A DNA stretch of 63,725 nt, counting the filler, from Basidioascus undulatus (Eukaryota), in the NCBI GenBank assembly GCA_000826855.1. It is 8 parts of 8 records of this genome, joined end to end, with 100 filler letters (N's around TTAATTAATTAA, not from the genome) between each part and the next. Parts side by side here need not be neighbours in the genome. Positions count along the whole stretch, not along the records: positions 1 to 23,449 come from JTLS01000266.1; 7 more parts are not named here. One strand, 5' to 3'. The position numbers and the translations under genes were made by a program. Shown here one piece after another: positions 1-60,249 of this stretch (positions are counted from its first letter, which is position 1; each line of letters starts with the position of its first letter). Below the pieces are notes generated by a model. The model saw nothing but the letters and a program-made list of their open reading frames with translations, was not told the DNA's origin and ran no database searches.

Positions 1-2254
1 CCTCCTCTTTGCCTCCTCCGCACCCCGCACATCCGCCCCCGCCCCTGCCGCTGCCCCCACCGCCGCCGCTGCTTCCCCAGCAGCCACACCCTCCGCCGCG
101 GGCGCGAAGCCGTGGCAGGCGATCGATGAGGCGCCTGTGGACGTGTATTGGTCCAAGAAGGACGGGCGGATTGGGCGGACGGGCAAGGACGCGCCGAGCC
201 GGCACAAGGGGAATCTGAACACGCTCGCGATTGAGGTGCGTCTTCGGCGGGGCTTGCAGAGGGGTGGGGTGATGCTGATCGTGGTATTGGCCGGGGTTCA
301 AACAGCCGTACGACACCAACTACCACAAGGAGCACCAGATCAAGCACCTCTCGTTCCACGCGTACCTGCGCAAGCTGCATGACAAGAACCCGCCCACCTC
401 GTCCGTCGCGTCGCTCCCCCCGCTCTCGGAACCCTCCTTCAAGTACATGCAGTGGGTCCCCGCTGCGATAACGCTCGGGGTGCAAGAGTTCCGGATGGTC
501 GACCACGTCGAGTTCTCCTCGCCCGCGATGATCGAGAACCTGCTCAACTTCTGGCGGGCGACGGCGACGCAGCGCTTCGGGTTCCTCCTCGGACGGTACG
601 AGCCGTATGACAAGGTGCCGATGGGGATCAAGGCCGTCGTGGAGGCGATCCACGAGCCCCCGCAGGAGGGCGAGCTGGACGGGCTGACGCTCGGCCTTCC
701 ATGGGAAGACCAAGCGCGCGTGGAGGCCCTTGCCCGCGACGCGGGGCTCGAGGTCGTGGGCATGATCTATACGGATCTGACTCAAGCGCCGGGGGAGAGC
801 GCGCCCCAGTGCAAGAGGCACCAGGACAGCTTCTTCCTCTCCTCGCTCGAGACATGCTTTGCCGCAAAGCTCCAGCTCGCGAACCCTACGCGCACAAGGC
901 ACTCGCCCACAGGCACGTTCCAGTCCCGCTTCGTCACGTGCGTCCTGAGCGGCACGCCCGAGGGCGGCGTCGACGTCGCCGCGTACCAGGTCAGCGCGCA
1001 GGGCGCGGCGCTCGTGGATGCGGACATCGTCGAGCCGAGCGTCGAGCCGGGTACCATGCGCCTGAGGGAGAGCGTGAAGGGGCGCTATGTTCCGGATGTG
1101 TTTTATCGGTATAAGAACAAGTACGGCATCGACGTCAAGCAGTACGCGAAGCCTTGCTTCCCCGTTGAGTACCTCCTCGTCAACGTGCGTTTCCCCTCAC
1201 TCCTTCACTCCCTGTCCTTTCTCCCCTTCTCTCTCCCGCTTATCTTCCACCCGCCTGCTGACTTCTCCCGTTCTCCCCCCACAGCTCACGCACGGCTTCC
1301 CCGTCGAGCCGAACCCGCTCTTCCTCTCCTCGCGCTTCCCGATCGAGAACCGGCCTGGGCTGCACGACCAGTCGGTGGACAAGCTCGTCTCGCTCCTCTC
1401 CCCGCTGGTCAAGGACCTCCCCGGCGTCGCGTACCTCTCGCCGGAAGACGTCGGCGTCTCCTCTTCCTCCGGGAAGGGGAAGGGGCGCACCGAGGATGCC
1501 GGGCGGGTGGAGGAGCTCCGGAGGGTGCTCAGCGATTGGCACTTGGTTGCGTGGTTGGAGGAGAGCGGGCTATTCTCGAAGGTGCGCCGCGCCATTCTCG
1601 CGCTTTTGTGTGCGGAGGGGAAAGAGGTGTTGACAAGCTTTTTGGGCGGGCCGACAGGACGACGTCAAGAAGTTCATGCACGTTGCGACGGCGCACGACG
1701 ACCCGCACGCGCTCGAGGGGGTCGTGTCCACGGACGGTTGGAAGACGCTCATGCACATCGTCAAAGAGCGCTCCGCGCGTACGTTATCCCTTCCTCTTCC
1801 TCCCCTTCCCTTCCCCTCTTAACTCCCCCGCGCCTTCAACTGACCCCCCTTCCCCCAGCGACCGCCCAACCCCACGACTACCCTGGCGCATTCGGCGGCG
1901 GCGATGACGTGGACATCCCGCCCGAGGCATTCGACTCTGCCGCCGCGGGCGGTGGAGCGGGCGGGCTGTCGGACGAGGACGAGGCTGCTATCCAGAGCGT
2001 GAGCGATTTCATGTTAACAGGGCGAAGAGGAGGTGTAGAAGGAACGCTGATGTGTGTTCGCGGGTGGACAGCTGATGGCCTTCGGTGGGTTCCCGTATGA
2101 GAGTGCCAAGGAGGCGTATTTGGCTTGCGATCGGTGGGTCGGGCCTTTCTTTACTGGCTTTTGGTGGTGGTGAGGACAGAGAGCTGATGTGCGTGCTGGG
2201 GGTGGTAGCAATTCGGAGCACGCTGCGAATCTGCTGTTCGAGAACGCATTCTGA
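1..2254 (+). CDS. NPL4: Nuclear protein localization protein 4 (Cdc48-Ufd1-Npl4 adaptor), multi-exon, 5' end outside the window; C-terminal UBA domain
   Basis: Spliced translation contains IKHLSFHAYLRKL, AITL..QEFRMVDHVEF, QRFGFLLGRYEPY..VPMGIKAVVEAIHEPPQ, VGMIYTDL, FFLSSLE, SRFVTCV, YVPDVFY, AKPCFPVEYLLV..THGFP and FPIENR, all Npl4 hallmarks. Stop TGA at 2252-2254. Confidence 0.96.
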
Positions 2255-2787
2255 GCCGGAGGGAGAGAAAGGGATGGGATGGTGGGCCGTTGGGCGTAGT
2301 GGTTGATGATGAGATGAGACGCTGAATGCAGGGCGTCTTTTGAGCTTGAAGCTCAGTTGGTTCGTGTTCGTGATCGAGAGGGGAAATGAGGCACAGCGCT
2401 GTTGGGACGGTTGGATAGGCGATCAAGAAGGGGACGATCAGTCCAAGTGTGGGATGCGAGTAGCGAGAAGGTGCGCCAGCCCGATCGAGGTGAGCGCAAG
2501 ACGGAGATGATCATGTGGGCGGATGAGTGGACGCAGCTCTGATGTGAGTGAGTGAACGTTTGGGAGGAAAGGGTAGCACTTGATGGGTGATGCGGATTCG
2601 AAAAAGGCGCGGTGAGTGCTTGAGCGGGTCCGGCACGCCCAGATGACCTACATCTTCGCAGAAGAGTGAAAGAGAGGGGAGGGTGGGAGAAGTGGTATCA
2701 TGCGATGCTTGAGTGATGATGGTAATGGTACATACGCCAATGCCTCTAAACCGAGAGAAAAGCAAAAGAAGACGTGGATGTTGATGA

Positions 2788-3367
2788 TCATCGAGAAGCG
2801 TAAGGCGAGTTGTTCTCCTTGATCGGGACCTGCGCGGTCGAGGAGGCGCCGTCTTGCCTGCGCGAGCGCATCCACTCGTCTTTGGCGGCTTCGACAACTT
2901 CTTCGGAATTACTTTGACGAGGCAGAAAGTCAGCGTTGGCAAATGAGCGAAAGATGAGGATGCGAAAAGGCGGAGGGAGGAAGACGGCGAACAGAAGACG
3001 GAGGGGAGGGGGGACGGGGAGGGAAGGAAAAGAGGAAGTGGGACGTGGGATGTGGGGGCGGGGAAGAGGGAGATGAAGCGAAGAAGAAAAGGGGAGGAAG
3101 GGAGGAAGAGGATCGGCAAGGGCAGGAGGGCGGAGACGAAGGGAGGATGGGAGATCGGAGGGGATGAGATCGAGGGCGAACTTACTGCTTCGCCATGCAC
3201 TCCTTCAAGGCCCGATGCGGCGCCCTACACGCCCACACAATACTGATCGTCCTCCCCTGCGAGCACTCTGCAAAGGCGCGGACGACGTCGTCGCACGCCT
3301 TAAGCGCCGCGAGACGCGTCTCTTTCCGCAGCGCGTCTTCCTCGCGGCGGGAGATTATTGCGTCCAT
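2788..3367 (-). CDS. CMC1: Twin CX9C cytochrome c oxidase assembly protein, Cmc1 family (2 exons)
   Basis: MDAIISRREEDALRKETRLAALKACDDVVRAFAECSQGRTISIVWACRAPHRALKECM shows twin CX9C. Intron at about 3185-2911, then exon 2 NSEEVVEAAKDEWMRSRR...stop. Confidence 0.88.
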
Positions 3368-3861
3368 GGTCGGCGGGGATTGGAGGGAGGGCGTGGGAGG
3401 AGTAGGTAAGAGAACGGTAAGGGTAGGGGTGTGGGAGGAAGATGGAGAGGGTGGGGAGTGGAGGAGATGGAGGAGGGGGAGGTTGAGGTCGCTGCAGGCC
3501 ATTTCGAGCGAAGGAAAGTCAGTACGAGGAGGGAAAGATGCAGATTGAGGGTATGCTGGACAGAATGATGTGGACGCACTGCACGGTCCCAGCAAATAAA
3601 TCGAGTGTAGTCAAAGGGGCTGGCTGGCCCAGGCAAGAGGCTGGCCGTCGATGAACGTTCAAGCTGTGCACGAGCAACCGCGAAGACGCTCGCTCTCGCA
3701 TGCTGGCGAGGCGGCGCAACTGCCGGGGCGCCGGTATCGCCGAACTCTCGCTGTGGATTCATTCCAGATCTTAAATCCGAAATGGTCTTCCCCAATCTCA
3801 GCTCAGCTCACCTCATCGTTCCTCGATCCCGAACGCTCACCGTCTTCTTCCACATTCGACA

Positions 3862-5732
3862 ATGCTGCTAGACCGTCCCGCTTCACTCCTCGTACGCTCT
3901 ATCAGAATTCACAGCAAATAGCAGAGTGGAGGGTAAGAGGAAGCTGACGATCGCCATAGGCCCGCCCCCTCACGCGCTCGCTCGCCACGCCCGCCTCGGG
4001 CGCTGCCGCAGCGGGGCCGTCCGCCCTTGCCGCGCGCGTCAAGGCGAAGCTGGACGACGGGCTTACGCTGGACGATTTTGTGCGGGCGGATGTGGTGGAG
4101 GAGGGGATAGTGGAGAAGGAGGGCGATGGGCGGGTCAGGCTGGGGAGGACTGGGGAGTACGTCTTCCTTTCCTCATTTCCCCTTCCCCTTCCCTTTCTTC
4201 TTTCCTTCCTACCTTCCTCTTTTATCTTTCTTCGGAGATGATTCACTTAATAATGTTGTGTTTGGGATGGTCAGGCCCCGCCTCCCCACCCACTTGCGTT
4301 CCCCCGCCGGCGCGGCGCCCACCTCCCCCTCCTTCAAGAAGCTGCGCTCCGACCTGCGCGGACTCGGGCTGCACACAGTGTGCGAAGAGGCGCGCTGCCC
4401 CAACATCGGCGAGTGCTGGGGCGGCTCGAGCAAGGAGGCTGCCACGGCGACGATCATGCTCATGGGCGACACGTGCACGCGCGCGTGCCGCTTCTGCTCG
4501 GTCAAGACGAGCCGGGCTCCTCCCCCGCTGGACGTGCATGAGCCGGAGAATACCGCGGAGGCCATTGGGAGGTGGGGGATTGGATATGTCGTGCTTACTA
4601 GTGTGGATCGGGACGGTGCGTTTGCTGCTCTCCTCCTCGCTCCAGGGACTCATCCCCCTCCCCCGCAGATCTCCCCGACGGCGGCGCCGCCCACTTCGCC
4701 TCCACGATTCGACGGATCAAATCCAAGTCCCCGTCAACCCTAATCGAAGCCCTCACAGGCGACTTCCACGGCTCCCTCTCAAGCGTGCGCGAACTCGCGC
4801 TCTCCGGCCTCGACGTGTACGCGCACAACGTCGAGACCAGCCCGGAGTGCACGCCGTTCGTGCGCGACCGGCGTGCGTCGTTTGCGCAGAGCTTGCGGGT
4901 GCTGGAGGAGGCGAAGCGGGTGAGGGGGCGCTTGGGGGCGGGGGTGGTGGATGGGTTGGAGGGAGTGGTGACGAAGACTAGTATTATGCTGGGGGTGGGG
5001 GAGACGGAAGAACAGGTGATGGGGGCGCTGAAACGTACGTCGGGCGTGGCCTTCTTCTTTTGTGGCTGGCAGGGGAGTTAGGGCATGACTGAAATGCGGG
5101 AGGGGGAGGGAACAGAACTCCGCCAGTCTGAGGTCGACGTCGTCACGTTCGGGCAGTACATGCGTCCGACGAAGCGGCACATGAGTGCGTCTTGTCTCCT
5201 CCCCTTTAACCACTCCTCCTCTCCTTTTCCCCCTTTCCCCCTCCTCTTCCTCTTCCGCCTCCTCTTCCTCTTCCCCCTCCTCTTCCTCTTGCCCTCCCCC
5301 TCCTCTTCCCCCTTCCCCTTCCCTTTGAACCGCGCGTCTTCCATTCATGCGACTGACTTCCGCGCTCGCCACGCTCGCAGAGGTCCACCGCTACGTCGAC
5401 CCCGCCGAGTTTGAGCGGTGGAAGACGATCGCGGAGGACATGGGCTTCCTGTACGTCGCGTCGGGCCCGCTGGTTAGGAGCTCTTACAAGGTGCGTTTGT
5501 CTTCCTCTTCCTCTTCGCACCTCCCTACCCATCCATCCTCTCTTCCTCGATGCTGATCATTGGGACTGAACTGCAGGCCGGCGAGTTCTTCATCAAGAAC
5601 GTGATTGAAAAGTCGCGCGCGCGGGGCGTCGCAAAGGCCGTCAAGGACCTCGCGGCGGCGGTGAGCCCGCTTGCTGGCTCTTCTTCCTCTTCTTCCCGGG
5701 TGGGAAAGGAGGCGGAGAAGTCGCAGGAGTAG
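3862..5732 (+). CDS. LIP5: Mitochondrial lipoyl synthase (radical SAM), multi-exon
   Basis: [86 protein letters not shown] and [16 protein letters not shown] are all present. Confidence 0.97.
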
Positions 5733-11671: not shown

Positions 11672-13889
11672 ATGAACCGCGGCAGTACGATGAGCCTTTT
11701 GGAGGCGCACGAGGTCCTGAACGTCGAGCAGGTGAGTAACCAGCGCTAAATGAGACAAGACATGCCTATTTCCTCGGCTCTCAGGCCTTGAGGCGGTTTT
11801 CTTATATTTCAATCCCTTTGTTTTGTAGGGCGAATCGCTCGACACTGTCCGATCCGCGTACAAGCGGATGGCGATGACCTCGCACCCGGACCGGAACCCG
11901 GACCTGCCCGACGCGACGCAGCGCTTCCAGCGCGTGAGCGAGGCATACGAGGTCATCACCCGCCACCACGAGCGCGCGAGCCGGCCGCAGATGCCGCACG
12001 GGTACACCGCCGGCGGGCCAGGCATGGGCCACCGCGCCCCGTTCTTCTCCTTCGGCGGCTTCGGCGGCGGCGGGGGGTCGTTCTACTTCACCCCCGGCGG
12101 GCCCGCCGGTTCGAGGGGATACTACGAAGATGAGGACGACTACGACGGGTTCGAGTTTGATGACGACGAGGACGACTTGTATGATGATGAGGAGGACGAG
12201 TACGAGGATGAGGACGACAGGGGCGACTTCTTCTTGTGCGTACACCGCTCTTCTCCTTGGTTCGCGGGTCTCTTTAGCGGTTTGGGACTGACTTGTTTTA
12301 CCGATTTCCTGCCCTTCCCACAGCTTCCTCTTCGAAGAGCTCATGCGCGGCCGCTCTCACAGCACCCACGGCGCGTACAAGAGTGCGTCTTCCTTCTTCC
12401 TTCCCCTCCTTCTGCTCACCCTCTGTGTTCCGCTGCTGACTTCCCTTCTCTCCCCCCTTTTCTCTTGAAGGCTACCGCACCAACCACCCCCATCACCACA
12501 GCGCCCGCGCCTCCGAGTCGTCCCGCCTCAGCACCGAGTGGGCGCGTCAGGCTCGCGCGGAGCAGGAGGCCGCCGAGGCGCGTCGCAAGGCCGAGGCGGA
12601 GGAGATGAAGGAGCGCAAGAGGCAGCAGCAACTGTGGGGTGCGTCTTCGTCTTCTCTCTTCTCTCGCTCTCCCCCTTCGCTCTTTGCTGCTCGGCTTTCA
12701 CAGTCCCCCGCGCTGACCTCACCTCGTCTCTCTTCGCTCTCCGCAGAGGCCGAGCAAGCCGCCGAGCGCCAGTCCAAAACCAAAGCCGCGAAAGCCTCCG
12801 CGGCCGCGGCCGAGCGGGACGCGGCCGAGCGGCGGATCCACGAGCGTCTGCGCGCCCGACAAGTGACGCGGAGCGCGACGTTCGCGGCCGCGCGCGCCGG
12901 AGATGCCGCGGGCGTACGCGACGGCGTGTGGGCGCAGGACGTCGACGTCAATGGCGGGGAGCGCCTACCTGGCTTGGAGGACGCCGAGTGGGAGGAGGTC
13001 AGGCGCGAGGGCGTGAGGAAGGCGCAGGAGCGGGTCGGGAAGGACGGAGGGGGGAAGGCGCCGGCTGTGGGGGTGGCGGCAGGGGTGGCGCCGAACGGGA
13101 ACGCACATAGGAATGGCGCGGCGGGAGGAGGAAAGTGAGTGCTTTCGCTCGGGCTTGGGCGTGGGTGGGGAGTAGCGCTGATGGAGGGTGGGGCCTGGTG
13201 CAGCAGGAAGAAGAAGGGCGGCAAGGCGAAGGGGAACGCGAACTGCCAGGCGAACGGTCATGCCGCGCAGAAGAACGGTGCGCCCGCGGCCGACGGGAAC
13301 GGCAAGGCGCCCGCCGCTGCTGCTACTATCGACCTCGGCGACCCGAAGGACACGTTCCTGCACATCGCCGTGCGGAAGGGCGACCAGGAGCTGATCGAGT
13401 GGCTGCTCGAGCACGGTACGCCTTCCTTCCCTCTCCTCCATTCCCTCCAACCCTCTCTACCTCCCTCCAACCCAGTCCTTCTCATACACTTCTCCCTCCC
13501 TTCCCACAGACGCTAACCCCCTCGCCCGGCACTCCACCACCTCCCAATCCTTCCTCCACCTAGCGCTCGCGCTCCCCTCCACGCCGCCCCCGCTCCTCAC
13601 CGCCCTGCTCGACCGCTTCCCCCCAGACTCGCCCGATCCGGACCTCTCCGGCCCGGCCTACCCGCTCCCCTCCCCCGAGAGCGACACCCTCCTGTCGCTT
13701 GCCGTCAGCGGGGGGTCCGCCGAGAACGTCCGGACGGTATGCGAGTGGGCCACGGACGAGGAGGTCGGGAAGGCGTGGGAGTGGGTCGGGGAGATTTTGG
13801 GGGGCAAGGGGTGGAAGGGGGAGAAGGGGTGGAGGAAGGTCAGGGACGTGTTGGAGGAGGTCGTACCGAGTTTGAGTGGGAGGCGATGA
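11672..13889 (+). CDS. J-domain (DnaJ/Hsp40) protein with acidic tract, coiled coil and C-terminal ankyrin repeats, multi-exon
   Basis: AYKRMAMTSHPDRNP..ATQRFQRVSEAY gives a J domain with HPD. D/E tract at about 12125-12220. Ankyrin-like segments DTFLHIAVRKGDQELIEWLLEH, ANPLARH..QSFLHLAL and DTLLSLAVSGGSAENV. Confidence 0.85.
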
Positions 13890-18728: not shown

Positions 18729-19916
18729 TCACGCCTCAGGCAGGTTGCTCATAACAGCCCTCTCGTCCTTGATGCCCTCCGTCAAGCGCGCCCTCTCCGC
18801 CCACAGCACCTTGTACGCGCTCCGAATCGTCGAGTCGCTCACGCCTGCAACGCTCCCAATCTCCACGGCGGTCTTCGGCTTCCCATACAGCGCGCTCGCA
18901 AAGAAGATACAGCTGCCCGCGATGGTGATTGGGCTGCGGCCCGCTAGGACGCCGTGCGTGCGCGCGGCGACTGCGACTGCGACGGCGCCTGTCTGGACCC
19001 ACACGGGAAGGTTGAGGTGGTTGCAGTAGCGGACCATGAGGTCCTCTGCAGTCGTGCCGCTGCTCGCCTCGTCGGGCGCGCGGGGCGTCTCGAACGCTGC
19101 CTCGAGCGCCTTGAAGCACTGCCCGATCGTCTTCTTCGGCACGCGGGTGAGGCCGCAGATCTCCTTGAACGTGCGCGGGACGCGCGCCTGGCGGCACGCG
19201 ATGAAGAGGCAGGCGGCGATGATCGCGTCCTGGGACTTGCCGCGCAGGAGGCGCTCCTCGTCGACGCGCTTGAAGAGCTGCTTCGCGATGTCGACGATCG
19301 AGCGTGGGAGAGAGATCTGGTCCGCCATGCTGCTTATGTCCCGGAATGCGTTCAGAAGATTCCGCTCAGACTTTCCGGACGCGGACTTCGCCGCCGCCCG
19401 CTGCAGCTCGCGCGAGAGGCCGGAGTGCCCGTCCCGAGAGGAGATGATCGTGTCCAGCGTGTCGAAGCCCTCCATGAGCGGGTTCGACGCTGCTCCGACA
19501 CGCGATGGGTCGTCGCCTTCGTCGTTGGCGAATGTCTGCGCACCCGAGCCAGCCGTGAGTCCCACCTACATCGGAGACATCGGAAGAAGGGGAAGAACGC
19601 ACGCGCCACTCGCTCCGCGTGTCCACCACGCGATCCCCGAGGATGAGCCCGCAGTCCCCACAGACCAGATCGCCCGACGAGAACTCCTCCACGACGTTCG
19701 GATGCGGATCGCGGCACTCTGGGCAGATCTGTCCGCCACGACACCCACCATCCGCCCCACCCGCGTCAGCGTCTTCCGCCCGCCCCGGAAGCCCATTGCA
19801 AGCGGCGGTAGGCTGACCAGCTTCACCGACAGGTCCGGCGCGAACGGCGCGGGCGCGGGCGCGGGGCCCGCCTCGGTGAAGCGCTTGGCGAGGGGGAAGG
19901 CTTGGGGAGTCGCCAT
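18729..19916 (-). CDS. SUA7: Transcription initiation factor TFIIB (3 exons)
   Basis: Zn ribbon ICPECRD..VVEEFSSGDLVCGDCGL, B-reader DTRSEWRTFAND..DDPSRVG, and cyclin repeats (IAACLFIACRQ..VPRTFKEI; LAGRSPITIA; VAGVSDSTIRSAYK). Confidence 0.97.
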
Positions 19917-22900
19917 TGTGCGTTGGGCGGGGCGGCGGGAATGCGAGGCAAGGACGAAGACGCTGGCTGGCTGGAAGATGGACGAAGCGAGATGTATGGA
20001 CGGGTACGAGCGAAGGACAGCGAGTGGAAGACGACAGGATTGATACGATCGAAAGCAATGGACGATCGTCAGCGAGCGTTCTCTGCTTCAAAGAGATGTG
20101 CTCGCCACTAAGATCCACAAGCCCGACTCGACTCCCAACACGCCCAGACTCCTCCGACCGGTACAGGAAGATCAGGGATGTACCTGATCGGCTCGATTGG
20201 GGGACGACGGAAACAACGGCTGGGGCGCTACGAAGGATTGAAGGGAGTGGGGCGATAAGGACGAGCGGAAGACGATGATAGTTGGCGTGGAAGCGTACCG
20301 GGGGCGACGACCTGCTCTTTGGGCCGACTTGAGCGGTAATCGGCGAGCTGCACCTGCTTGTCTGCGTTGCCAAACAAGCTCCCTCTACTTCGTCCGTTAC
20401 AGCAGTTTGTTGCAAAAGGTTAGGTCTCTGTTCCTTGCCCCGCGGGATGCAGTCACCTCGTCCGGCTTTCTGGTCATCCAAGTCAGTCAGGCCCAAGATG
20501 CCGTTGTTCAGCTAAAAACCAAGCAGCAACAAGAATAAGGCATGCGACGGGACTTTTTGCTATATACGTAAAGACAACACTTGGGGGCGGGTTGTGAACT
20601 CCATCGCCTGGGCGTCTCGCACTGGAACGAATGCTCGCCACAAGAAAACAGTCAAACTGAGCATCACATGTCTGCTGCAGGTATGTATGCTGTAAGAGTG
20701 ATTAGCCAATCTTCGAAAACAAGATAGACTTTGTCTAAATGTCCAACATGTCGCTCAACGTGCCAGGCATTCCGCTGAACTGAGGCATATCACAACCTCC
20801 AACAAGGAGGCTGCAGGTTCACCTTGAATGGATATTAGCCAAGTTGTCCAGATACACATCTGAAGAAGAAGAGAAAGGGTAGTTGGGTGCAAGCAAGGCT
20901 TTTTTGGGTGTGAGACCAAATCCTCCGATCCGATGAGTTTGGAAGCTTCAGTCTGCGGTGGCGTATTGGTGCAACGGTTCGGTACTCATTTATTCACTCA
21001 CCTCTCGATCCTTCCAGCGCTTATGGCTGTCGCAGGCTTAAAGGTCCGTCTTTCGATCACCTGAGCGCAGGGAGGCACGTCATCGAAGGCAAGCCCATCG
21101 TGGCGGCGTCCCGTCCCCTTCAGCCAGGAACATGTCCTTCCAACACATTTGGATTTGGACCTCCTCCCTGAGGGGTCGAAGCTTCACCGCGGCACCCAGC
21201 CTAGGGGCCAGCCAACGCGACTTCAGTGTCGTCGGCACGAGATCTCGCCCAGAGGCCGCCGGCCACAGAACTTCTGACCTAATTAATCAAACAGAGTTCT
21301 GAGATCCGACATCCGTGCTGATCGCATTGTGCTCGGAAGCGACTTTCTGCGCTGCGAGTTTTACTGGACTCGCCGCACGTTCGCCTGCTTCGTCGCCCCT
21401 CCGCTTGGCCGCCCTCGCCAGAGTTCCATTGCGCAGTCCCGGACGTGTGCTCGCCCCCTTTTCGAGATACATCGCTTGTGGCGTACCTGCATAATACACC
21501 GATGAGAAGGCTTGTCGAGCGTCAAGCGGTTCCGTGGAGCCGAACTGCGGGGCTGTTTGGACTTCTCTACATGCACGGGTTCATGACAGCGTTAAGCACT
21601 GACCGTAGAAGTTCAGGCAGCTCGAAAAGTTCCCCTACAGGGCAGTGCGGTTTAATGATCCAACCACGCGAACAGGCTCCTGGCGTCGCTACAGATACGA
21701 GTTGCGTCCAGCAATTTGCGCGTGAAGATCGTGCAAGATGTCTACCAACGGCTGCACCCCGGCCACCCTTTTGCTCTTACACACGATCAAGTCGCCGCGT
21801 CCTTCGATATCATTGAATCATTCTATGCCGATGTCGGCGGCCTCTGCGAAGTCTGCGGCGCTGCTTGTTGATCGATGTGCCGGGCATGCTTCGGTGCTGC
21901 GTATTGCCGGCAGGCGCATCAGAAGGAGGATTGGCCAAGGCACAAAACTGTTGTCTTTTGCACCCGAGCATTATGCTTACTCTAGCTCGTTTGGTCCTTC
22001 CATCTGCAATGGTGCAAGGCCCACCGGGTGTGAGGGGCCGGCATGGGCGCCGGGCGGGCTGCTATGTGTTGAGGGGGTAGCTAGCGATCGGGGCATGCGG
22101 CAATACTAAAGATTCCATTGCAGTATTTTTAATATGATAGTGACGCTCTAGAGGTTCGACCGCACTAGAAATCATAGGTTCAGAGCGTCTTGAGTAACGT
22201 AGCGGGACCTGAATGGCCCACACACCCGTCTGCTTCCTTGATGTCAAGCTTGATGGTTTACTGCAGTGATTGCGCAAGGCTTCCACCGTACGTTTTTCTG
22301 CTCTGTATGTGAGCGGAGTGGGTCTCCGCCTCTTTCTGTTCCCAAGATCGCCTCGTAGTACCTTGCGCAGTCACCTCGCGTCAACGCGCGTGGCCGCTAT
22401 TGACATTCCTTTGCCCTTATCATCCTACCGATTTCACTTCTGTCTCAGTTGTACTTGAAAGTTGTGAATATCAATTCGCAATCTCCATTCAGATGCGGGA
22501 TTGACGCTTCGCGGCTTCGCCAATAATCTTCCTTCGCTCGCCTGCCTTTCATGAAACTACGTCAACATCCCCCCAGTGCCAGCTAAAGTTAGTCCCAGCT
22601 GTCCTTTCGAAGGTTTATATAACTATGTAAGAAGCAAACCGACATGTCTCCTAGGCCTGTAGGCAAATGCCCGTTCTAGTACCAGCCTGGCCATCTGCCC
22701 CAGCAACTTCCGCTTGCTTCTGTGTCAGTCGGGGCAAGCCTCGACCAAAGGCCTCCAGTCTTCCGAAAACGTCAGACGTACGAAGGAGACAGGAAACCAG
22801 CGTCTGTGCCGTTGTGTCCAGATTGACTTTGTGCACTGCGAGTTGATCATCAGCACTGACTCGCTCGCAAGTTCGCCGCTGCATCACCAGGCCCATTACG

Positions 22901-31937: not shown

Positions 31938-33537
31938 GGAGGGAAGGGGGGGACCCACCCCGCTCGTTGATCATGGGACGGTTCGTGATCGTCCCCGAGC
32001 GACAGGCAAACTTGAGCGTGTTGAGCGTATCCGAACGGAAGCGGATGCCGGGCGCGAGGTTGCAGATGAGCAGGCCGAGTGAGTCGCCGCCGAGCGCGCC
32101 TGGCAGTACATCACATCAGCAAGGATAAAGGCTGCGGAAGGAGAAGAAGCGGGAGGCGGGAGAGTAGAAGGGAGGGGAGAAGGGAGGAAGGGGGGACGCA
32201 CTTTGGAGGATGCGCGTGAGCTTGTCGTTCCGGTAGGGCACGCGCGTTTGGTTTGTGTTCAACGCGTCGACGACGTTGCCGAGGGCTGGGTGGGAGCGTC
32301 AGGGGGCCATGGGAATCTAGAGGCCTGAGAGAAGACTCTGGTGGGACGTACCGGAGAGTGACTTTAGGCGTTCGGCGTGTGGGAATGTCAGTTGGCATAT
32401 GGTAGGATGAGGGAAGCGAGACGCACAGAGTTGATCGACACACTCTCCTTCATCCGCTCCGCATTGTTTCCCGTATGCTTGTTGTTCTCCGACCCCGCCA
32501 GATCAATCAGATTAATGCGCCCAACAAGCGCTACCCCGCCGGCCATCCTCATCAGCTCCTTGCCTTTCCCACCTCCTCCCGACAGCGACTTACTCTTCTC
32601 CTCCTTCGTGTCCTTGCACTCGACGGTGATGCCGAGTATCGCATGGCTGCGCGAGCTCGCGGCGTTCAGGTTCGTCGCGCCCGTGGAGCGGTGCTTGTTC
32701 GCGACGGCGTAGAGCTTGTTGAACGCCTCGGCCGAGGCGATCGGGTGGGCGGAGAGCCCCGCGACGAAGACTTTGTCGGACGCGTCCGAGCGGATGTCCA
32801 GCGGCTTGACCTGTCCTCCCCAACAACCCAGCGCGACATCAGAGGAGGAAAGGCGGTGAGGGGGGAGGTGGGGGACGCACCTCGGACTTAGGCACGAGCA
32901 GATCGTAGACTTTCCCCGCGTACAGCTCCATGTAGTCGCACGAGAGCGTGATCTCGTACCGCCGCAGACGCTTCTGCTTGAGGAAGAGCGCCTCGACGAC
33001 GCGCGGGATGATGCCCTTGTCGGTGGGCGTGCCGGACATGGTGTGCGTCTTTCCGGAGCCGGTGACGCCGTCTGGATGATGGGTGTGGGACAGTGCTCAG
33101 CTGGGAGAATAGGGACGGGGAAGGGGTGATGGACGGACAGCAGAACACGGTTACGGCCTGGTGAGGGCGTGTGAGCGGGTGGGACAAGAGCGAGGGAAGA
33201 AGCAGGATGAGCTCACCTGCCCCTTGTACACACTATCGATGAGCGGAGCGACGTCCTGCTCGTACACCTCCTGCTGGGTGCTCTCCGGCCCATGCACACT
33301 CGCGAAGCTGCCGGGTCCCCCAACCCATCCCATCCCGCAATCAGTTCCTACCTCCTCCTCTTCCACCAGGGTCCACCTCATCCGTCCTCACCTAAACCGG
33401 TGAACCTGACTCTGGTTCTGAGCGCCCAAGCACTCGACGCTCCGCCCATCGTCGAGGATCCTGAGCCCGTCGTCGACGAGCTCGCTCGGGAGGGCGGGGC
33501 GGAGGCGGACCGAGATGCGGATTTTGGTGTCCGCCAT
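31938..33537 (-). CDS. Kinesin motor protein, N-terminal motor domain (Kid/KIF22, kinesin-10-like); 3' end cut by gap
   Basis: KIRISVRLRP, P-loop GVTGSGKTHTM, YMELY..KVYDLL, switch I LNA.SSRSHAIL, switch II INLIDLAGSENNKHTGN, PYRNDKLTRILQ and TLNTLKFA. Confidence 0.92.
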
Positions 33538-39226: not shown

Positions 39227-41355
39227 ATGCGGCTAGTCCCCGCAGCGACCGTGCTCGCGCTCCTCGCGCTCTCCACCACCACCACACTCGCAGAGCAACA
39301 GCCCCTCTCCCACCAGGCAGTGCTGGACCAGGCCAATGCCCAGTTCGCGCAGGGCAAGTTCGGCGATGCCGCGAACCTGTATACGCAGGCGATAGGTGCG
39401 TCGGTTCCGAGGACGAGGGGGACCGGGGAAGCTGATGGAGAGGGCTGGTGAGGGCGGCAGATCTCGATCCGACGAGCTACTTGCCGTATTATCGGCGGGC
39501 GACCGCGTACTTGAGTTTGGGGAGGAACGCGGCCGCTCTGAGCGACCTTGATGCAGTGCTCAAGCTGCAGCCTTCGCTTGACCAGGTGCGCTGCCATTAC
39601 CCTGCAAGCCACTTTCACCGGAGACTGAATTGAGGATGTGGGGATCCATACAGGCCCGCCTGCGCAAGGCGGAGCTCCTCGTGAAGGAAGGGTCGTTCAC
39701 GAAGGCGAGGGAGGAGCTGGACCTGTACCGGAAGAAGCATAAAGCGGACTCGAACGCCATCGAGCTGGTGCGTCCTTCCTTTCCCTTGATCCCTCGTCCT
39801 CCTCGGGATAGAAGCTGACTGGAAGGAGGTCGTCCTAATGCCCTAATGCGCTCCAGGACGCCAAGATCAAGGCGGCCGAGAAGCAGCTCGCGGCGGCGAA
39901 GAAGGCGCATAAGGCGGGCAATTTCGACGCCGCGCTCGAGAATGCCGCGGCTGTGTTGCAGGTCGCGCCGAACGCGCTAGACGTGCGCGAGATGCGCGTG
40001 GACTCCTTCTTGGCGCTTGGCGCGATTGAGGACGCCGTGGGCGACATGACGTGAGTCCAATATGCAGGATGGAAGCGAATACGGGAGACGCGGGAACGCT
40101 GACTTGCATTTTGGGGCAGCCGCATCGCGCACCTCCGCCCGTCCTCCCCCGCGCTGCTCCTCCGCCTCGCACATCTCTCCTACTTCCTCCTCTCCTCGTA
40201 CGACCCCGCCCTCTCGCAGATCAAGCAGTGTCTGCACTCCGACCCGGAGTCCAAGCCGTGCAAGCGCTTCTTCCGCCTCCTCAAGTCTCTCCAGAAGGAC
40301 CTCTCGAAGGCGCAGTCCTTCGTGGCCTCCCAGTCCTGGCGCGCCGCCGCGTCCGTCCTCGCGGGCAAGGGCGGCCTGACGGAGCGGGTTGACGAGGCGC
40401 TCGCGGCGGGGCAGCGCGCGGGGGAGTGGGGGCTGGGGGAGCCCCCGCTGCCGCCAGGGCTGGATGTCGAGAAGAACAGCGCGCTCAGGAGGGAGGTGTA
40501 TGCGCTCGCATGCAAGGCTTATGTCCAGCTCGGGACCGAGCCTGCTAAGGCGCAGAGGTTCTGCGACGTTACGCTCGTGCTCGACCCCGAGAACACAGAC
40601 GCGCTCGTGTCCCAGGCGGAGAGGATGCTGAAGGAGGAGAAGTACGAGGAGGCGGTTCGGACGCTCGAGAAGGCGTTCGAGGCGACCGGTCGCTCTTCCC
40701 AAGATGTGCGTCTTTCCTCTCTTCTTCCGGGCCTCTTACAAGCGCAGCTCACCCCTTTGCCCGCACCACAGATCGCCTCGCGCCTCCAGCGCGCTCAAAA
40801 GCTGCTGAAGCAGTCGCGCTCGAAGGACTACTACAAGGTGCTCGGCGTGCCGCGGGACGCGGACGAGCGCGCGATCAAGAAGGCGTTCCGCACGAAAGCG
40901 AAGGACGCGCACCCGGACAAGGGCGGGTCCGTCGAGCAGATGGAGCGCCTGAACGAGGCGTATGGCGTCCTTTCCGACCCCGAGCTCCGCAGGCGCTTCG
41001 ACGCGGGCGACGACCCCAACGACCCCGAGGCGGGCAGAGGCGGGCCGTGGCAGCACGGAGGTGGGGGGCAGGCGTACCAGGTGCGTCCGAGTCTTGCTGC
41101 TTCGCCATGCCTTTTTTCTCACTGGTTTCTGCGCGTATGGAAACAGTTCTTCCAGCAGAGCGGGTTTCCCGGAGGGTTCCCGGGTGGGTTCCAGTTCCCA
41201 GGCGGGGCGGGGTCGCCGTTCGGCCAGGGCGGCGGGCGGGGAGGACAGACGTTCCACTTCCAGGTCAGTCGTGTTTTGCGTTACCTATCTCGTCCCTTCT
41301 GCTTCTACTGCTCGTAGCTGACTTGATCTCGTCTGGCGCTGCGCAGTGGGGTTGA
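39227..41355 (+). CDS. ER-lumenal TPR + J-domain co-chaperone (DNAJC3/P58IPK/Jem1-like), multi-exon
   Basis: Signal peptide MRLVPAATVLALLAL, TPR repeats (DPTSYLPYYRRATAYLSLGR; IKQCLHSDPESKPC), J domain KDYYKVLGV..IKKAFR..AHPDKGGS..LNEAYGVLSDPELR and a G/F-rich tail. Confidence 0.93.
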
Positions 41356-55432: not shown

Positions 55433-58344
55433 AGTATGTAGTTACAAGTGAAATCCCATAGGCAGCTCTTGTGCCGAGGAGGCTGACATGCGGGTTTGGC
55501 TTTGCAGTGGACGACGACGACGGGATCCTGCTCAACGTCGCCCCGGGCGCCTCGAGCGGCGCTGGGCGGAAGGCGAGGGCTGCGAAGGGCGGGCGCTGGA
55601 CGGATAGGTGAGTGTTCCTTTCATTTCCAGGCGTGGCTTGGCGGCGAGGGTTTCTAAGTGTGGGATTCGTTGCAGGGCGGCCGTCAAGCAAGCTGCGAAG
55701 CGAGCCACAGGGTCTAGCAAGCCCAACAAGCCCAAGGCTCAGCCTCAGCAGTCCCAAGCCCCTCCTCGCCCCACCCAAGCCTCTCCGTCTGCCTCTCATG
55801 TCACGGTCGGCCCCCGCCCGACCAAACGAGCGCGCCAGGACGCGTCTTCCGGCGATGCCGCACCGGCCGACACTTCATCCGCTCCTTCCGCTGCTGCCCC
55901 CACCGGCGCACGCAAACAAGTCATCTCGTCCCTCTTCTCCTCGAACCCCTCCGTTCCCCAAATCTCTACGTCCACCGCTCAACCCTCCAGAAACGTTGCA
56001 CCTTCCAACGCCCCGCTCACCGCCTCCTCGACCTTCTCCGGTGCGGGGCTGCACCCTCTCCTCATCCAGCACCTCACCACCAAGCTCTCCATCTCCGCGC
56101 CCACGTCCATCCAGCGTCTCGCGCTCCCAGCTCTCCTCCGCACTCACAACCCCTCCGACCCGCTCGCGGACCGCGACATCTTCATCCAGTCTCAAACGGG
56201 GTCCGGTAAGACCCTCACGTACCTACTCCCGATCATCCAGGACCTGCTCCCGCTCGGCGAGCTGTCCTACATCGACCGGAGCATCGGCACGCTGGCGATC
56301 ATCCTCGCGCCGACGCGCGAGCTGGCGCGGCAGATCTCGGACGTGCTCGAGAGCCTGCTCAAGATGAGCCTCACGCTGGCGGGGACGGACGCGGAGGAGG
56401 CGCCGCGGCTCGCGCGCTGGCTCGTCTCGGGCATCCTGACGGGCGGGTCGACGCGGACGCACGAGAAGGCCCGCCTCCGCAAGGGCGTCCCCATCCTCGT
56501 CGCCACGCCCGGCCGCCTCCTCGACCACTTCCAGAACACGTCCTCCTTCAACGCGAGCAAGTGCCGCTGGCTCGTCCTCGACGAGGCCGACCGCCTCATG
56601 GAGCTCGGGTTCGAGGAGACCATCACGGGCATCTTGAAGGGCTTGGACGGGCGGAGGAAGCTCGCTATCAAGGCGATCGAGGAGGGCGCGCTCGGGCTCG
56701 GGACCGAGGTCGGGGGCTGGGACTGGTCCCGCCGGAGACGCACCGTCCTCTGTTCCGCTACGATCCGCGAAGATGTCCAAAAGCTCGCGAACACGACGCT
56801 CCGCGATCCGCTCGTCCTCAAAGAGTCCGACGCGCCCAAGCTCCCCGCCGCTGGCTCGCCCTCCAAGCCCCTCTCCCTTCTCACTCCCACCCCCGCTGAC
56901 GACTCCTCCGCCGACATTTCTGCCGACGCGCCGGACCCCGCGTCCGAGACGCGCTTCACCCCGCCCTCCCAGCTCACGCAGAAGCACGTCGTCGTCCCGC
57001 TCAAGCTCCGCCTCGTCACGCTCGTCGCGCTCCTCCGCTCGCTCATCGCGCCTGCTGCCGGGACCGTCACCGCCAACACGCAGGCGAACCGCGTGATCGT
57101 GTTCCTCAGCTGCACGGACTCGGTTGACATGCACTGGAAGCTCCTTGGCGGGACGCGGATGGGCGCTGAGCCTGAGTCGGCAGAGGAGGAGGAGGAAGAG
57201 GGAGAGGCGGAGGAAGAGGACGACGACGGGGACGACGACGACGAAGGGGACGACGACGCGAGCGATGCTTCAGTATTGCCTAAGTCTCCGAAGCGCAAAG
57301 TCGAGTCCAAGAAGCCCGCCGCAGCCGCCGACCCCATCTCCGTCACCTGCGCTCTCCTCCCCAACGCCGCAATCTATCGGCTCCACGGTTCCCTCCCCCT
57401 CGCGACTCGTCTCGCCTCCCTGCGCGCCTTTTCCGCCCGCTCCGGCCCGTCCTCCCCCACGCCCGCCATCCTCCTCTGCACGTCCGTCGCCTCGCGCGGT
57501 CTCGACATGCCGCTCGTGCGCGCCGTGGTGCAGTACGACCTCCCCACCGAGGGCGGGGTGAACGAGTACGTGCACCGCGTGGGGCGCACGGCGCGTGTCG
57601 GGCGCGGCGGCGAGGCGTGGGCGTTCGTCGCGCCTAGCGAGACGGGGTGGGTCGACTGGCTGGAGGGCCGCATCGGGGACGAGGAGGCGGGCGAGGGGAA
57701 AAAGAAGAAGAAGAAGGTCTCGCTCGTGCCCGTGGGCGTGAACGAGGTATTGAAGCGCGGGTTTGGCGGACGCGGAGACGAGTACGAGGCGCGGGCGACG
57801 GACGCCCAGCTCGCTTTCGAGCGGTGGGTGCTCAAGTCTAAGAACGTACGTTCCCCTCGTCCTCCGCTTTTGTCTTCTGTCGGGCCACGCTGACTGACGG
57901 CTTGCCACACAGAACGCATCCATCTCGCGCACGGCCTTCCTCTCGCACGTGCGGGCGTATGCGACGCACCCGACCGAAGAGAAGCAGTTCTTCCACGTGA
58001 AGAACCTGCACCTGGGGCACCTAGCGAAGGCGTTCGCGCTGCGCGAGACGCCGTCGATGGTCGGAACGAGCAAGAAGGCGCCGTCGGCTGCCACGGCGTC
58101 CTCCGCCGCGGGTGCGGGCAAGGACGGTAAGGGCAAGGGCAAGAAGAAGGCGCTGACGACGGAGGAGCGCATGTACGCGTCCGTGCGCGCGCAGGGCCGC
58201 CTGTCGAAGAAGGGAGGAGAGCTTGCCGCGAACGATGGGAGCGAGTTCCAGGTTGCCGACTCGGGGTACTTGATGAAGGCTGCGGGTGGGGCTGTCGGGA
58301 CAGGAGCGAGCAAGGGAGGAGCGGGGAAGAAGAGGAAGAGATGA
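55433..58344 (+). CDS. DBP7: DEAD-box RNA helicase Dbp7 (60S biogenesis)
   Basis: [11 protein letters not shown]-terminus, [67 protein letters not shown] and HVRAYATHP...[19 protein letters not shown]. Confidence 0.95.
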
Positions 58345-58590: not shown

Positions 58591-60249
58591 CTACCTCTCC
58601 TCCTCAAGCGTCTTCACCGCCATCCTAGCGCAAGTCTCCTCCTCGTCCGTCCACGCCACCCAGGTCTGGACCTTCGCGCCCTCCTTCCCGATCCGCACCG
58701 CCTTGGTCTTGCCCTCCTCGACCCCCTCGTTCAAGCCCTCGTCCACCTCCACCCCGAGCGGCGCCAGCGCCTTCCCGACGTCGCTGCGCAGCCGCGCCGC
58801 TTTCTCGCCGATCCCGCCCGTGAAGACGATGCCGTCTACCGGGCCCTGCGCGAGGAGCTTGCACAGGTAGGACGAGAAGAAGTGGAGGAGACGGTCGAGG
58901 TAGACCGCGTACGCCAGCTGGTACTTGTTCACGGGCGGGTCGGGGAACGGGTCCGAGGCGGGCGGAAGGTGGGAGACGATCTTGCCGAAGTTGTTGGTCC
59001 CGCACATGCCGACGAGGCCGCCTTGCCTGCATGATTGCCGGGGTGTTAATACGACGAAATTCGCGATGCGCGATGGCGCGGTGCCACGGCTGCCTGTTAA
59101 AAGTTAAAACGTACTTGTTCATGATCATCTCGCCGCGAGCAATCTGAACGATGAGGATACGCAGAATGATGAGAACGTTGAGAACTGCGCGTTGCTTGAA
59201 AGCGATAGCAAACCTACCTTCATCCCCTTGAAGTCGACGATGTCTGCGGAATGCGGCTGCCAGTGGAAGATGAGCGTTGGGTCGACGCTGCCCGTTCGCG
59301 TCCCGCCCGGAATGCCTGTGCCATTCGCCTGGCGTAAGCGCGCAAGTCGAGCTGAAAAAGAACAACTGCTGCTCACCTTCGAGCGGAGTCAGTCCCATGC
59401 TCGTATCGATGCTCTTGCCCTTCCTGACCGCGCACAGACTCCCACCGCTACCTAAGTGCGTAATGACGATACTCGTGTCCTCCTCCTTCTTCCCCAGCGC
59501 TTGCGACACGGAGCGCAGGACGGACGCGTACGAGAGACCGTGCGCGCCGTACTTGCGCAGCGGGATGCGCGGCTTGTGGTCGGGGTTCTGGGGCGGGAGC
59601 GGGTAGGTGGTGATGTGCTTGGGGAGAGAGGCGTGGAAAAGCGTGTCGAAGCAGAGAACGGAGGTCGACTTGGGGAGGTTTCTCAGGACGGACCGGACGG
59701 TCAGGACGGCGTGGTGGTTCTGCAACCCCAGCCTCAGGTTCAGCCGTTGGTCAAGCGGAAAAATACAATAAGAAATAGAACGAGACATACATGCAAGGGA
59801 GCAAAGGCGCTGATGATATCCATCTTCTCCAGGCCTTCCTCCTGGCCCTTGCGGACGATGATGGGCTTGCTCTCCTCGGCGCCGTGTACAACGCGGTGAG
59901 CCACGACCTCGACCGCGTCCCTCTCGAAACCGTTGGAGATCAAGATCTTTTGCAAGATCTGCTCGAAGATATCTTCGTCTGTGTCAATTTGTGCGCTCAT
60001 GTCAGCTAATCTACCCAAGGGGACCGAGCAGCTTCGTAAACACTCACATGCGGGATGGCCTTCGATCGCGTCCTCCGTCTTCTTGCAGCCAGAGGAAGAA
60101 ACAAGAGTGGTTTTGATGACTGCTCCTTCGGTGCCGATGTTGGATGCGCCGCCTTCGCTGAGCGGCGTGAGATCGGGAAGGGAGAAGAGTCTGTATTTGA
60201 TCGAAGACGAGCCGCAGTTCACGGCGAGGAGTGTACGCTGGGGTGCCAT
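58591..60249 (-). CDS. ackA: Acetate kinase, multi-exon
   Basis: LAVNCGSSSIKY, VAHRVVHG, FAPLHNH, FDTLFH, LRKYGAHGLSY, ITHLGSGGSLCAV..GKSIDTSMGLTPLEG..GGTR.GSVDP, IVFTGGIGE and TDEE. Confidence 0.96.

Follow-up and report, generated by a model that had tools for sequence, protein, structure and literature searches.

A fungal Npl4 with a Rad23-UBA2-type UBA domain at its C-terminus in the place of the NZF zinc finger

The DNA analysed here, referred to as the window, is a stretch of 63,725 nucleotides from Basidioascus undulatus (assembly GCA_000826855.1). Positions 2–2254 of the window hold the 3' part of the gene of Npl4, a subunit of the Cdc48-Ufd1-Npl4 unfoldase, in a basidiomycete form that groups with Wallemia. 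The protein ends, at its extreme C-terminus, in a three-helix UBA domain of the Rad23-UBA2 type, for which the last three exons of this gene code. The analysis supports a lineage-specific swap of the NZF zinc finger for a UBA domain in a zinc-free fungal Npl4. The complete reading, in which a Rad23-UBA2-type tail replaced the NZF in a single swap, the internal zinc fingers were lost and the UBA domain does the job of the NZF, is given a probability of roughly 75%.

The region coding for the UBA domain lies at 1966–2251 on the forward strand, corresponds to residues 547–592 of the visible protein model and is split by introns 5 and 6. Exon 5 (1859–1998, +) first completes the Npl4 C-terminal domain and then encodes the conserved DIPPE linker motif and a Gly-rich linker; UBA helix 1 begins at 1966. 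Exon 6 (2072–2133, +) provides the remaining part of helix 1, the FGGF loop and helix 2 and is matched by both the Pfam UBA and the Rad23-UBA2 profiles, and exon 7 (2209–2254, +) encodes helix 3 and the stop codon at 2252–2254, with approximately three residues following the helix. The Rad23-UBA2 profile was built here from the C-terminal UBA of 61 Rad23-length proteins, and the comparison set consisted of the best 120 relatives among Npl4 proteins, almost all of which are of basidiomycete origin (121 sequences with the window). In the spliced window protein the profile matched residues 547–591 with 61.9 bits (E 3.2e-19, 121 sequences). Only one other Npl4 in the set was matched, that of Wallemia ichthyophaga (65.8 bits), and the other 119 scored 4.7 bits or less. 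The exons could also be recognised separately. The exon 6 piece matched profile positions 15–35 (21.5 bits) and abutted, at 35|36, the exon 7 piece, which matched positions 36–48 (16.2 bits). These were the top two of 7,784 stop-to-stop pieces taken from the first 4 kb of the window and from 61 other Npl4 loci, the next piece reaching 9.1 bits. Pfam UBA matched the first 20 codons of exon 6 (2072–2131) alone with an E-value of 0.0039 and 17.4 bits, and in the Wallemia tail Pfam UBA (PF00627) was matched over model positions 2–37 of 37 (E 4e-4, 20.6 bits). The Gly-Phe loop (FGGF) and the Leu-Leu pair of helix 3, which are motifs of UBA domains, are present in the tails of both the window and Wallemia. 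As the tail falls just below the Pfam threshold and is split by two introns, it is missed in domain tables, which is a warning for annotators.

Models of the Wallemia orthologue predicted a compact three-helix bundle of approximately 40 residues. AlphaFold2 folded the Wallemia tail with a mean predicted local distance difference test (pLDDT) value of 90.7 and helices at 5–18, 22–31 and 36–46. The full-length Wallemia model (661 residues), whose alignment consisted of 43 NZF-bearing Npl4 sequences and no Rad23, placed helices at 619–632, 636–645 and 650–660 in a block with pLDDT of 77–83. Foldseek comparison of the tail model revealed yeast Rad23 UBA2 (2qsf_X) as the best match, with a template modelling (TM) score of 0.86, a root-mean-square deviation of 1.3 Å and 49% identity, and nearly all of the listed matches were UBA domains (TM 0.63–0.86).

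When a library of 1.84 billion representative proteins was searched by phmmer with the Wallemia tail, 183 matches at E ≤ 0.001 were obtained. The best 40 of these 183 all contained a Pfam UBA domain (40/40); the XPC-binding domain, a marker of Rad23, was present in 31 of the 40, and NPL4 was present in none (0/40). The window tail matched all of the 150 proteins listed out of the 183. Its best match was the C-terminal domain in 58 of the 67 listed proteins of Rad23 length (300–450 amino acids), and the C-terminal UBA outscored the internal UBA in 40 of the 41 Rad23-length proteins in which both were matched, by a median margin of 22.7 bits. Sequence matches in the PDB were the UBA2 of Rad23 or hHR23A/B in eight of ten cases (best 2qsf_X, 2.5e-7), the other two being the Cbl UBA. 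An earlier note on this DNA had described the tail as UBA-like and as following the C-terminal UBA pattern of Rad23. The profile search now run (61.9 bits with the profile built here, Pfam UBA sub-threshold) agrees with the former statement, and the XPC-binding, PDB and C-terminal preference counts agree with the latter.

The UBA2 domains of Rad23 and hHR23A,B (2qsf_X, 1dv0, 1f4i) were the best matches of the tail in both sequence and structure, and they share with it the signature A-Y-x-A-C-[DE]-[KR]-N...A-A-N-x-L-F, the Gly-Phe loop and the very C-terminal position. Between 24 and 27 of 44–46 residues are alike in the window tail and Rad23 UBA2, a similarity equal to that with the Wallemia Npl4 tail. 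Rad23 UBA2 favours K48-linked ubiquitin chains. Rad23 is composed of UBL, UBA1, XPC-binding and UBA2 domains, whereas the host of the window tail is an Npl4 lacking UBL, UBA1 and XPC-binding domains and does not classify as a member of the Rad23 family; no UBL or XPC-binding sequence adjoins the tail. Most likely, the domain was derived from a copied RAD23 3' end.

The tail follows the DIPPE linker and occupies the position of the NZF in nearly all other basidiomycete Npl4. A four-cysteine NZF could be found within the last 45 residues of 109 of the 120 relatives, and in all 109 it carried the pattern T-F/Y/L...C-x-hydrophobic-C, which marks ubiquitin-binding NZFs. In ten relatives the protein stops within the Npl4 domain or its last part is unrelated sequence, and these ten appear to be truncated or wrongly modelled. 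A single relative, W. ichthyophaga, ends in a UBA domain. The C-terminus of the window Npl4 has no NZF/RanBP2-type zinc finger (PF00641) and no CxxC. Within window positions 1–4000 the best score of an NZF profile was 1.3 bits, compared to 32–62 bits in 19 of 61 metagenome Npl4 loci, and no remnant of the finger was seen there. The Npl4 of other Basidiomycota (Mycosarcoma maydis, Tulasnella, Trametes) consists of UN_NPL4, zf-NPL4, NPL4 and NZF, and its MPN and C-terminal domains are 55–62% identical to the window over exon 2. The DIPPE motif and a small module of ubiquitin-binding type in the last position are common to both. However, the other Basidiomycota end in the NZF (109/120) and keep the internal fingers (115–118 of 121), whereas the window ends in a UBA domain and has no finger ligands. 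The RanBP2-type NZF of human and rat NPL4 stands at the same place as the window UBA and presumably has the same accessory ubiquitin role (passages of PMC9377798 and PMC7785736), but it is zinc-dependent and its fold is unrelated.

Further occurrences of the architecture were searched for with the Wallemia tail and among metagenomes. A UBA tail was present in none of the 61 metagenome Npl4 loci, the best of which showed 58% identity and none of which was a close relative. No Npl4 occurred among the 150 listed of the 183 library matches; the search also failed to return the Npl4 of Wallemia, and Npl4-UBA proteins hidden behind tail-less cluster representatives could therefore be missed. In a word-index search of proteins of 614–1955 amino acids, which needs shared five-residue words, only the Wallemia cluster was recovered from six candidates. 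The same search among proteins of 30–613 amino acids gave one candidate and no match; both results carry little weight given that shared five-residue words are required. Among the library matches, P0212 reached a weak 15.7 bits with an Npl4 profile, but the match covered N-terminal residues 24–109 and not the Npl4 core, and it was rejected.

The internal zinc fingers are lost in the same protein. At the place of zinc finger 1 (zf-NPL4; 197–235, +) the ligands are substituted or deleted. The ligand columns contain Cys or His in 115–116 of 121 sequences, compared to R, K, gap, gap in the window and S, E, gap, gap in Wallemia. At the place of zinc finger 2 (zf-NPL4; 441–476, +) a 17-residue deletion inside a continuous exon has removed all four ligands. 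In 118 of 121 sequences all four (C, H, C, C) are in place, and the window and Wallemia are the only complete sequences to lack them. With all eight ligand columns substituted or deleted, the window protein does not qualify as a two-finger zf-NPL4; the zf-NPL4 family PF05020 still matches exon 2 (2.1e-24) at 86.7 bits, compared to 216–223 bits in relatives. The visible window protein has five cysteines and the Wallemia protein seven, with no CxxC in either, compared to 12–16 cysteines and four CxxC in each of three relatives. The former finger stretches had pLDDT below 50 in the full-length Wallemia model. Three claims of the earlier note hold in the light of these results and of the NZF counts above: the NZF swapped for a metal-free UBA domain, the loss of both internal fingers and a visible Npl4 free of zinc, the last of which extends to the whole Wallemia protein. 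An open reading frame with an intact TFIIB zinc ribbon at 19366–20511 (−; Pfam 5.1e-11) indicates that zinc-binding modules are kept elsewhere in the genome, and a genome-wide avoidance of zinc could thereby be ruled out.

In opisthokonts the internal fingers are regarded as the anchor of Npl4 to the D1 ring of Cdc48. According to passages of PMC7785736, they are essential for unfolding by p97 and are the target of copper from a disulfiram metabolite. Finger-less NPL4 has been described in plants, other non-opisthokont lineages and trypanosomatids; in plant NPL4 the contact that fingers would make with D1 is taken over by a linker strand, and the plant paper states that the NPL4 of Opisthokonta contains the finger domain (passages of PMC12902296 and PMC7403338). 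ZF1 and ZF2 are missing from the plant and trypanosomatid proteins and likewise from the window, but the former are described as having lacked the fingers from the outset or supergroup-wide, whereas the window lineage has undergone a secondary loss inside the fungi and carries a UBA tail in addition. A finger-less Npl4 is already known from plants and trypanosomatids. In open-access text no mention of an Npl4 of Wallemia was found, nor, among the titles and abstract starts listed, of an Npl4 with its own UBA domain.

Language-model features placed the Wallemia Npl4 nearest to plant NPL4 clusters without zf-NPL4 (0.87–0.88, compared to 0.84 for ascomycetes), which serves as a lead only, and no UBA domain was present in any cluster listed by these features, plant clusters included. 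It is conceivable, although rather doubtful, that ZF1, ZF2 and the NZF were purged together in the common ancestor of the window and Wallemia lineages, with only the ubiquitin binder being replaced. The resulting zinc-free adaptor would be immune to copper and oxidants as an adaptation of a xerophile or halophile, and a finger-free D1 anchor would have been re-invented in a plant-like manner. If true, this would represent a Cdc48-Ufd1-Npl4 unfoldase without zinc in its adaptor and immune to the copper or oxidant attack that blocks human p97. The Npl4 of the window and Wallemia provides a fungal complex for studying finger-independent anchoring to Cdc48 and a ready-made zinc-free Npl4 for metal-sensitivity testing.

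The NZF is the ubiquitin site of highest affinity in human NPL4 and yet is dispensable for endoplasmic-reticulum-associated degradation, and it only improves unfolding efficiency (passages of PMC9377798). S. cerevisiae Npl4 is described as having no C-terminal module (passages of PMC7785736 and PMC9377798). In the proposed mechanism, the UBA domain would take over the accessory job of the NZF by holding the polyubiquitin chain of the substrate near the Npl4 tower, with no need for zinc. We infer that the tail is expressed and that it binds ubiquitin; the helix-3 Leu pair is needed for ubiquitin binding by Dsk2 (passages of PMC3105319). UBA domains also bring ubiquitin chains to the same ATPase in the UBA-UBX cofactors FAF1, UBXN7, Ubx5 and p47/Shp1 (passages of PMC9377798). 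In those proteins, however, the UBA domain resides on a separate UBX adaptor and is usually N-terminal, whereas that of the window is fused to Npl4 itself. A finger-less fungal Npl4 with an NZF-to-UBA swap can be seen as a natural experiment, which suggests that modules of unrelated fold can stand in for one another as the terminal ubiquitin binder.

A C-terminal fold of the UBA2 type with a Gly-Phe loop probably also shields the C-terminus of Npl4 from engagement, either by the unfoldase it serves or by the proteasome. The UBA2 of Rad23 and the UBA of Dsk2 are stabilisation signals in cis that act only at the C-terminus and need the Gly-Phe loop, and protection is lost when an unstructured extension follows them (passages of PMC3105319). 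Since the window tail is C-terminal, has the FGGF loop and ends approximately three residues after helix 3, this protective second role is likely. By analogy with Rad23 and Dsk2, the tail probably protects Npl4 from C-terminal engagement and degradation.

A stronger version of this idea would make the tail mainly a cis-acting cap that blocks the start of unfolding by the proteasome or Cdc48 at the long, flexible C-terminal linker, rather than a ubiquitin receptor. This is a possible explanation, compatible with the preferred reading and the best of the alternatives, but clearly the less probable emphasis. The UBA2 type of the tail, its FGGF loop and its end approximately three residues after helix 3 fit a cap, but the module that was replaced is a ubiquitin binder, as indicated by the T-F/Y/L...C-x-hydrophobic-C pattern in 109 of 109 NZFs. 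The C-terminal, loop-dependent and extension-sensitive protection by Rad23 UBA2 and Dsk2 UBA (passages of PMC3105319) is in favour of a cap, as is the dispensability of the NZF for unfolding (passages of PMC9377798), whereas the S. cerevisiae Npl4 without any C-terminal module argues that a cap is not generally needed (passages of PMC7785736 and PMC9377798).

It is unlikely that the UBA domain recruits a protein instead of a ubiquitin chain, such as another cofactor of Cdc48 or a shuttle factor bound through its ubiquitin-like domain. Partners other than ubiquitin are bound by UBA folds, and structure titles among its UBA neighbours include Tap UBA with an FxFG peptide, hHR23A UBA2 with HIV-1 Vpr and Dsk2 UBA with UBL. 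However, the tail sits where a ubiquitin-binding NZF was, and both lineages have kept the elements that contact ubiquitin (passages of PMC3105319), namely the Gly-Phe loop and the Leu pair of helix 3.

The 3' part of the Npl4 gene (2–2254, +) was modelled by splicing as seven exons with 592 visible codons. The exons lie at 2–235 (cut by the start of the window), 306–1184, 1285–1581, 1658–1778, 1859–1998, 2072–2133 and 2209–2254, and when joined they form a single open frame of 592 codons with the stop codon TGA at 2252–2254. All six introns are 70–100 nucleotides long, start with GT and end with AG. A CTGAY branch-like motif stands 14–29 nucleotides upstream of the acceptor in five of the six, and in intron 3 TTGAC is found instead, 25 nucleotides upstream of the acceptor. 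Intron 5 (1999–2071, +) is 73 nucleotides long, in phase 0 and reads GTGAGC...CTGAT...AG, and intron 6 (2134–2208, +) is 75 nucleotides long, in phase 2 and reads GTGGGT...CTGAT...AG. The approximate positions that had been proposed for these two introns are exact in the spliced model, with GT-AG borders, and the peptide then quoted for the last three exons is identical, letter for letter, to the spliced one. The G+C content of the window DNA is 58%. Pfam NPL4 (PF05021) matched exon 2 with an E-value of 4.8e-88 and 295.9 bits (gathering cut-off 24) and exon 3 with 27.7 bits, which places the MPN-like and C-terminal domains above the gathering score of the family. The window starts downstream of the 5' end of the gene, which codes for the UBX-like domain; in the Wallemia orthologue UN_NPL4 is matched at 4.3e-08.

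Exon 5 alone holds both the DIPPE motif, which is seen also in relatives with an NZF, and the UBA domain up to its eleventh residue. Because this exon joins the Npl4 linker to the start of the UBA domain, the tail belongs to the Npl4 frame rather than to an adjacent mini-gene. Retention of intron 5 would lead the frame into 34 unrelated residues and then a stop codon. That the three exons stand outside the mature Npl4 mRNA, being a model artefact, decaying pseudo-exons or a mini-gene, is very improbable. The exon joins were predicted from sequence, and the W. ichthyophaga models come from automatic annotation, which in several cases merged them with the gene upstream. However, exon 5 already contains the beginning of UBA helix 1 in the frame of the Npl4 linker, introns 5 and 6 have full signals like the other four, and splicing is the only in-frame route to a stop codon without unrelated sequence. 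Conservation of the tail in the Wallemia orthologue, described below, argues likewise.

Phylogenetic analysis with FastTree included 110 of the 121 Npl4 sequences, 11 rows of fewer than 590 or more than 850 residues being left out, and revealed the window and Wallemia as sisters with 100% Shimodaira-Hasegawa-like support. The Npl4 of the window and W. ichthyophaga are 70% identical over exon 2 and 56% identical overall. Their tails have 25 of 44 residues and the FGGF loop in common, although the preceding linker cannot be aligned; that of W. ichthyophaga is longer and rich in Glu, Gln and Arg. The W. ichthyophaga Npl4 (P0274, 661 amino acids) has the same UBA tail and the same two finger losses with the same boundaries as the window. 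The sister position, the common tail and the common finger losses point to one acquisition before the lineages split, with the domain kept since. Conserved tails behind a diverged linker are as expected if the UBA domain was acquired once and has been under purifying selection since. An Npl4 with a UBA domain is thus not private to the window genome and is shared with W. ichthyophaga, which goes beyond what the earlier note could know.

Npl4-UBA entries of 661–1125 amino acids occur in W. ichthyophaga on several contigs and in several annotated strains. Most of the public W. ichthyophaga entries (P0001, P0271–P0273 and P0276; 1106–1125 amino acids) consist of an SPX and RING-finger protein (residues 1 to approximately 455) fused to Npl4. 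In one W. ichthyophaga strain the fused model is split into proteins of 464 (P0275) and 661 (P0274) amino acids. A misjoining of a RAD23 3' end to NPL4 in the assembly can practically be dismissed, for although the tail resembles Rad23 UBA2 as closely as the Wallemia Npl4 tail, the same architecture recurs in these W. ichthyophaga entries, and the join lies inside a single exon with no XPC-binding or other Rad23 sequence nearby.

Several points weigh against the swap of the NZF for a Rad23-UBA2-type domain as set out above. The tail-bearing lineages found are only two. Neither the Wallemia tail (20.6 bits) nor the exon 6 codons alone (17.4 bits) reached the Pfam UBA gathering score of 22.4 bits. 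An internal-UBA profile built here gave 50.5 bits on the window tail, and the assignment to UBA2 thus depends on a profile margin of 11 bits together with the library, PDB and C-terminal-versus-internal comparisons. Compared with most Rad23 UBA2 domains, the FGGF loop has one extra residue; the longer loop does occur in about 11 of 29 aligned Rad23 fragments, four times as LGGF, including the best matches to the window tail. The AlphaFold2 model of the Wallemia tail was folded with Rad23 UBA2 rows in its alignment and leans to the UBA fold for that reason, and Foldseek listed no match at E ≤ 0.001 for this tail, the query being short (47 residues). Finally, the splice junctions are predicted from sequence signals and homology.

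Further genes were noted in the window. A Cmc1-like cytochrome c oxidase biogenesis gene at 3182–3610 (−; Pfam 1.2e-12) is convergent with the 3' end of Npl4, and approximately 900 nucleotides between the two are available for both 3' untranslated regions. Ordinary housekeeping genes were found at 55608–57893 (+), 58625–59983 (−), 40103–41317 (+), 11829–12608 (+) and 32388–33212 (−); jointly, these five loci represent a DEAD-box helicase, an acetate-kinase family protein, two DnaJ-domain proteins and a kinesin motor fragment. Acetate kinase is slightly unusual in a basidiomycete but is known from fungi. One of the two DnaJ-domain proteins showed a sub-threshold ANAPC3/TPR-like match.

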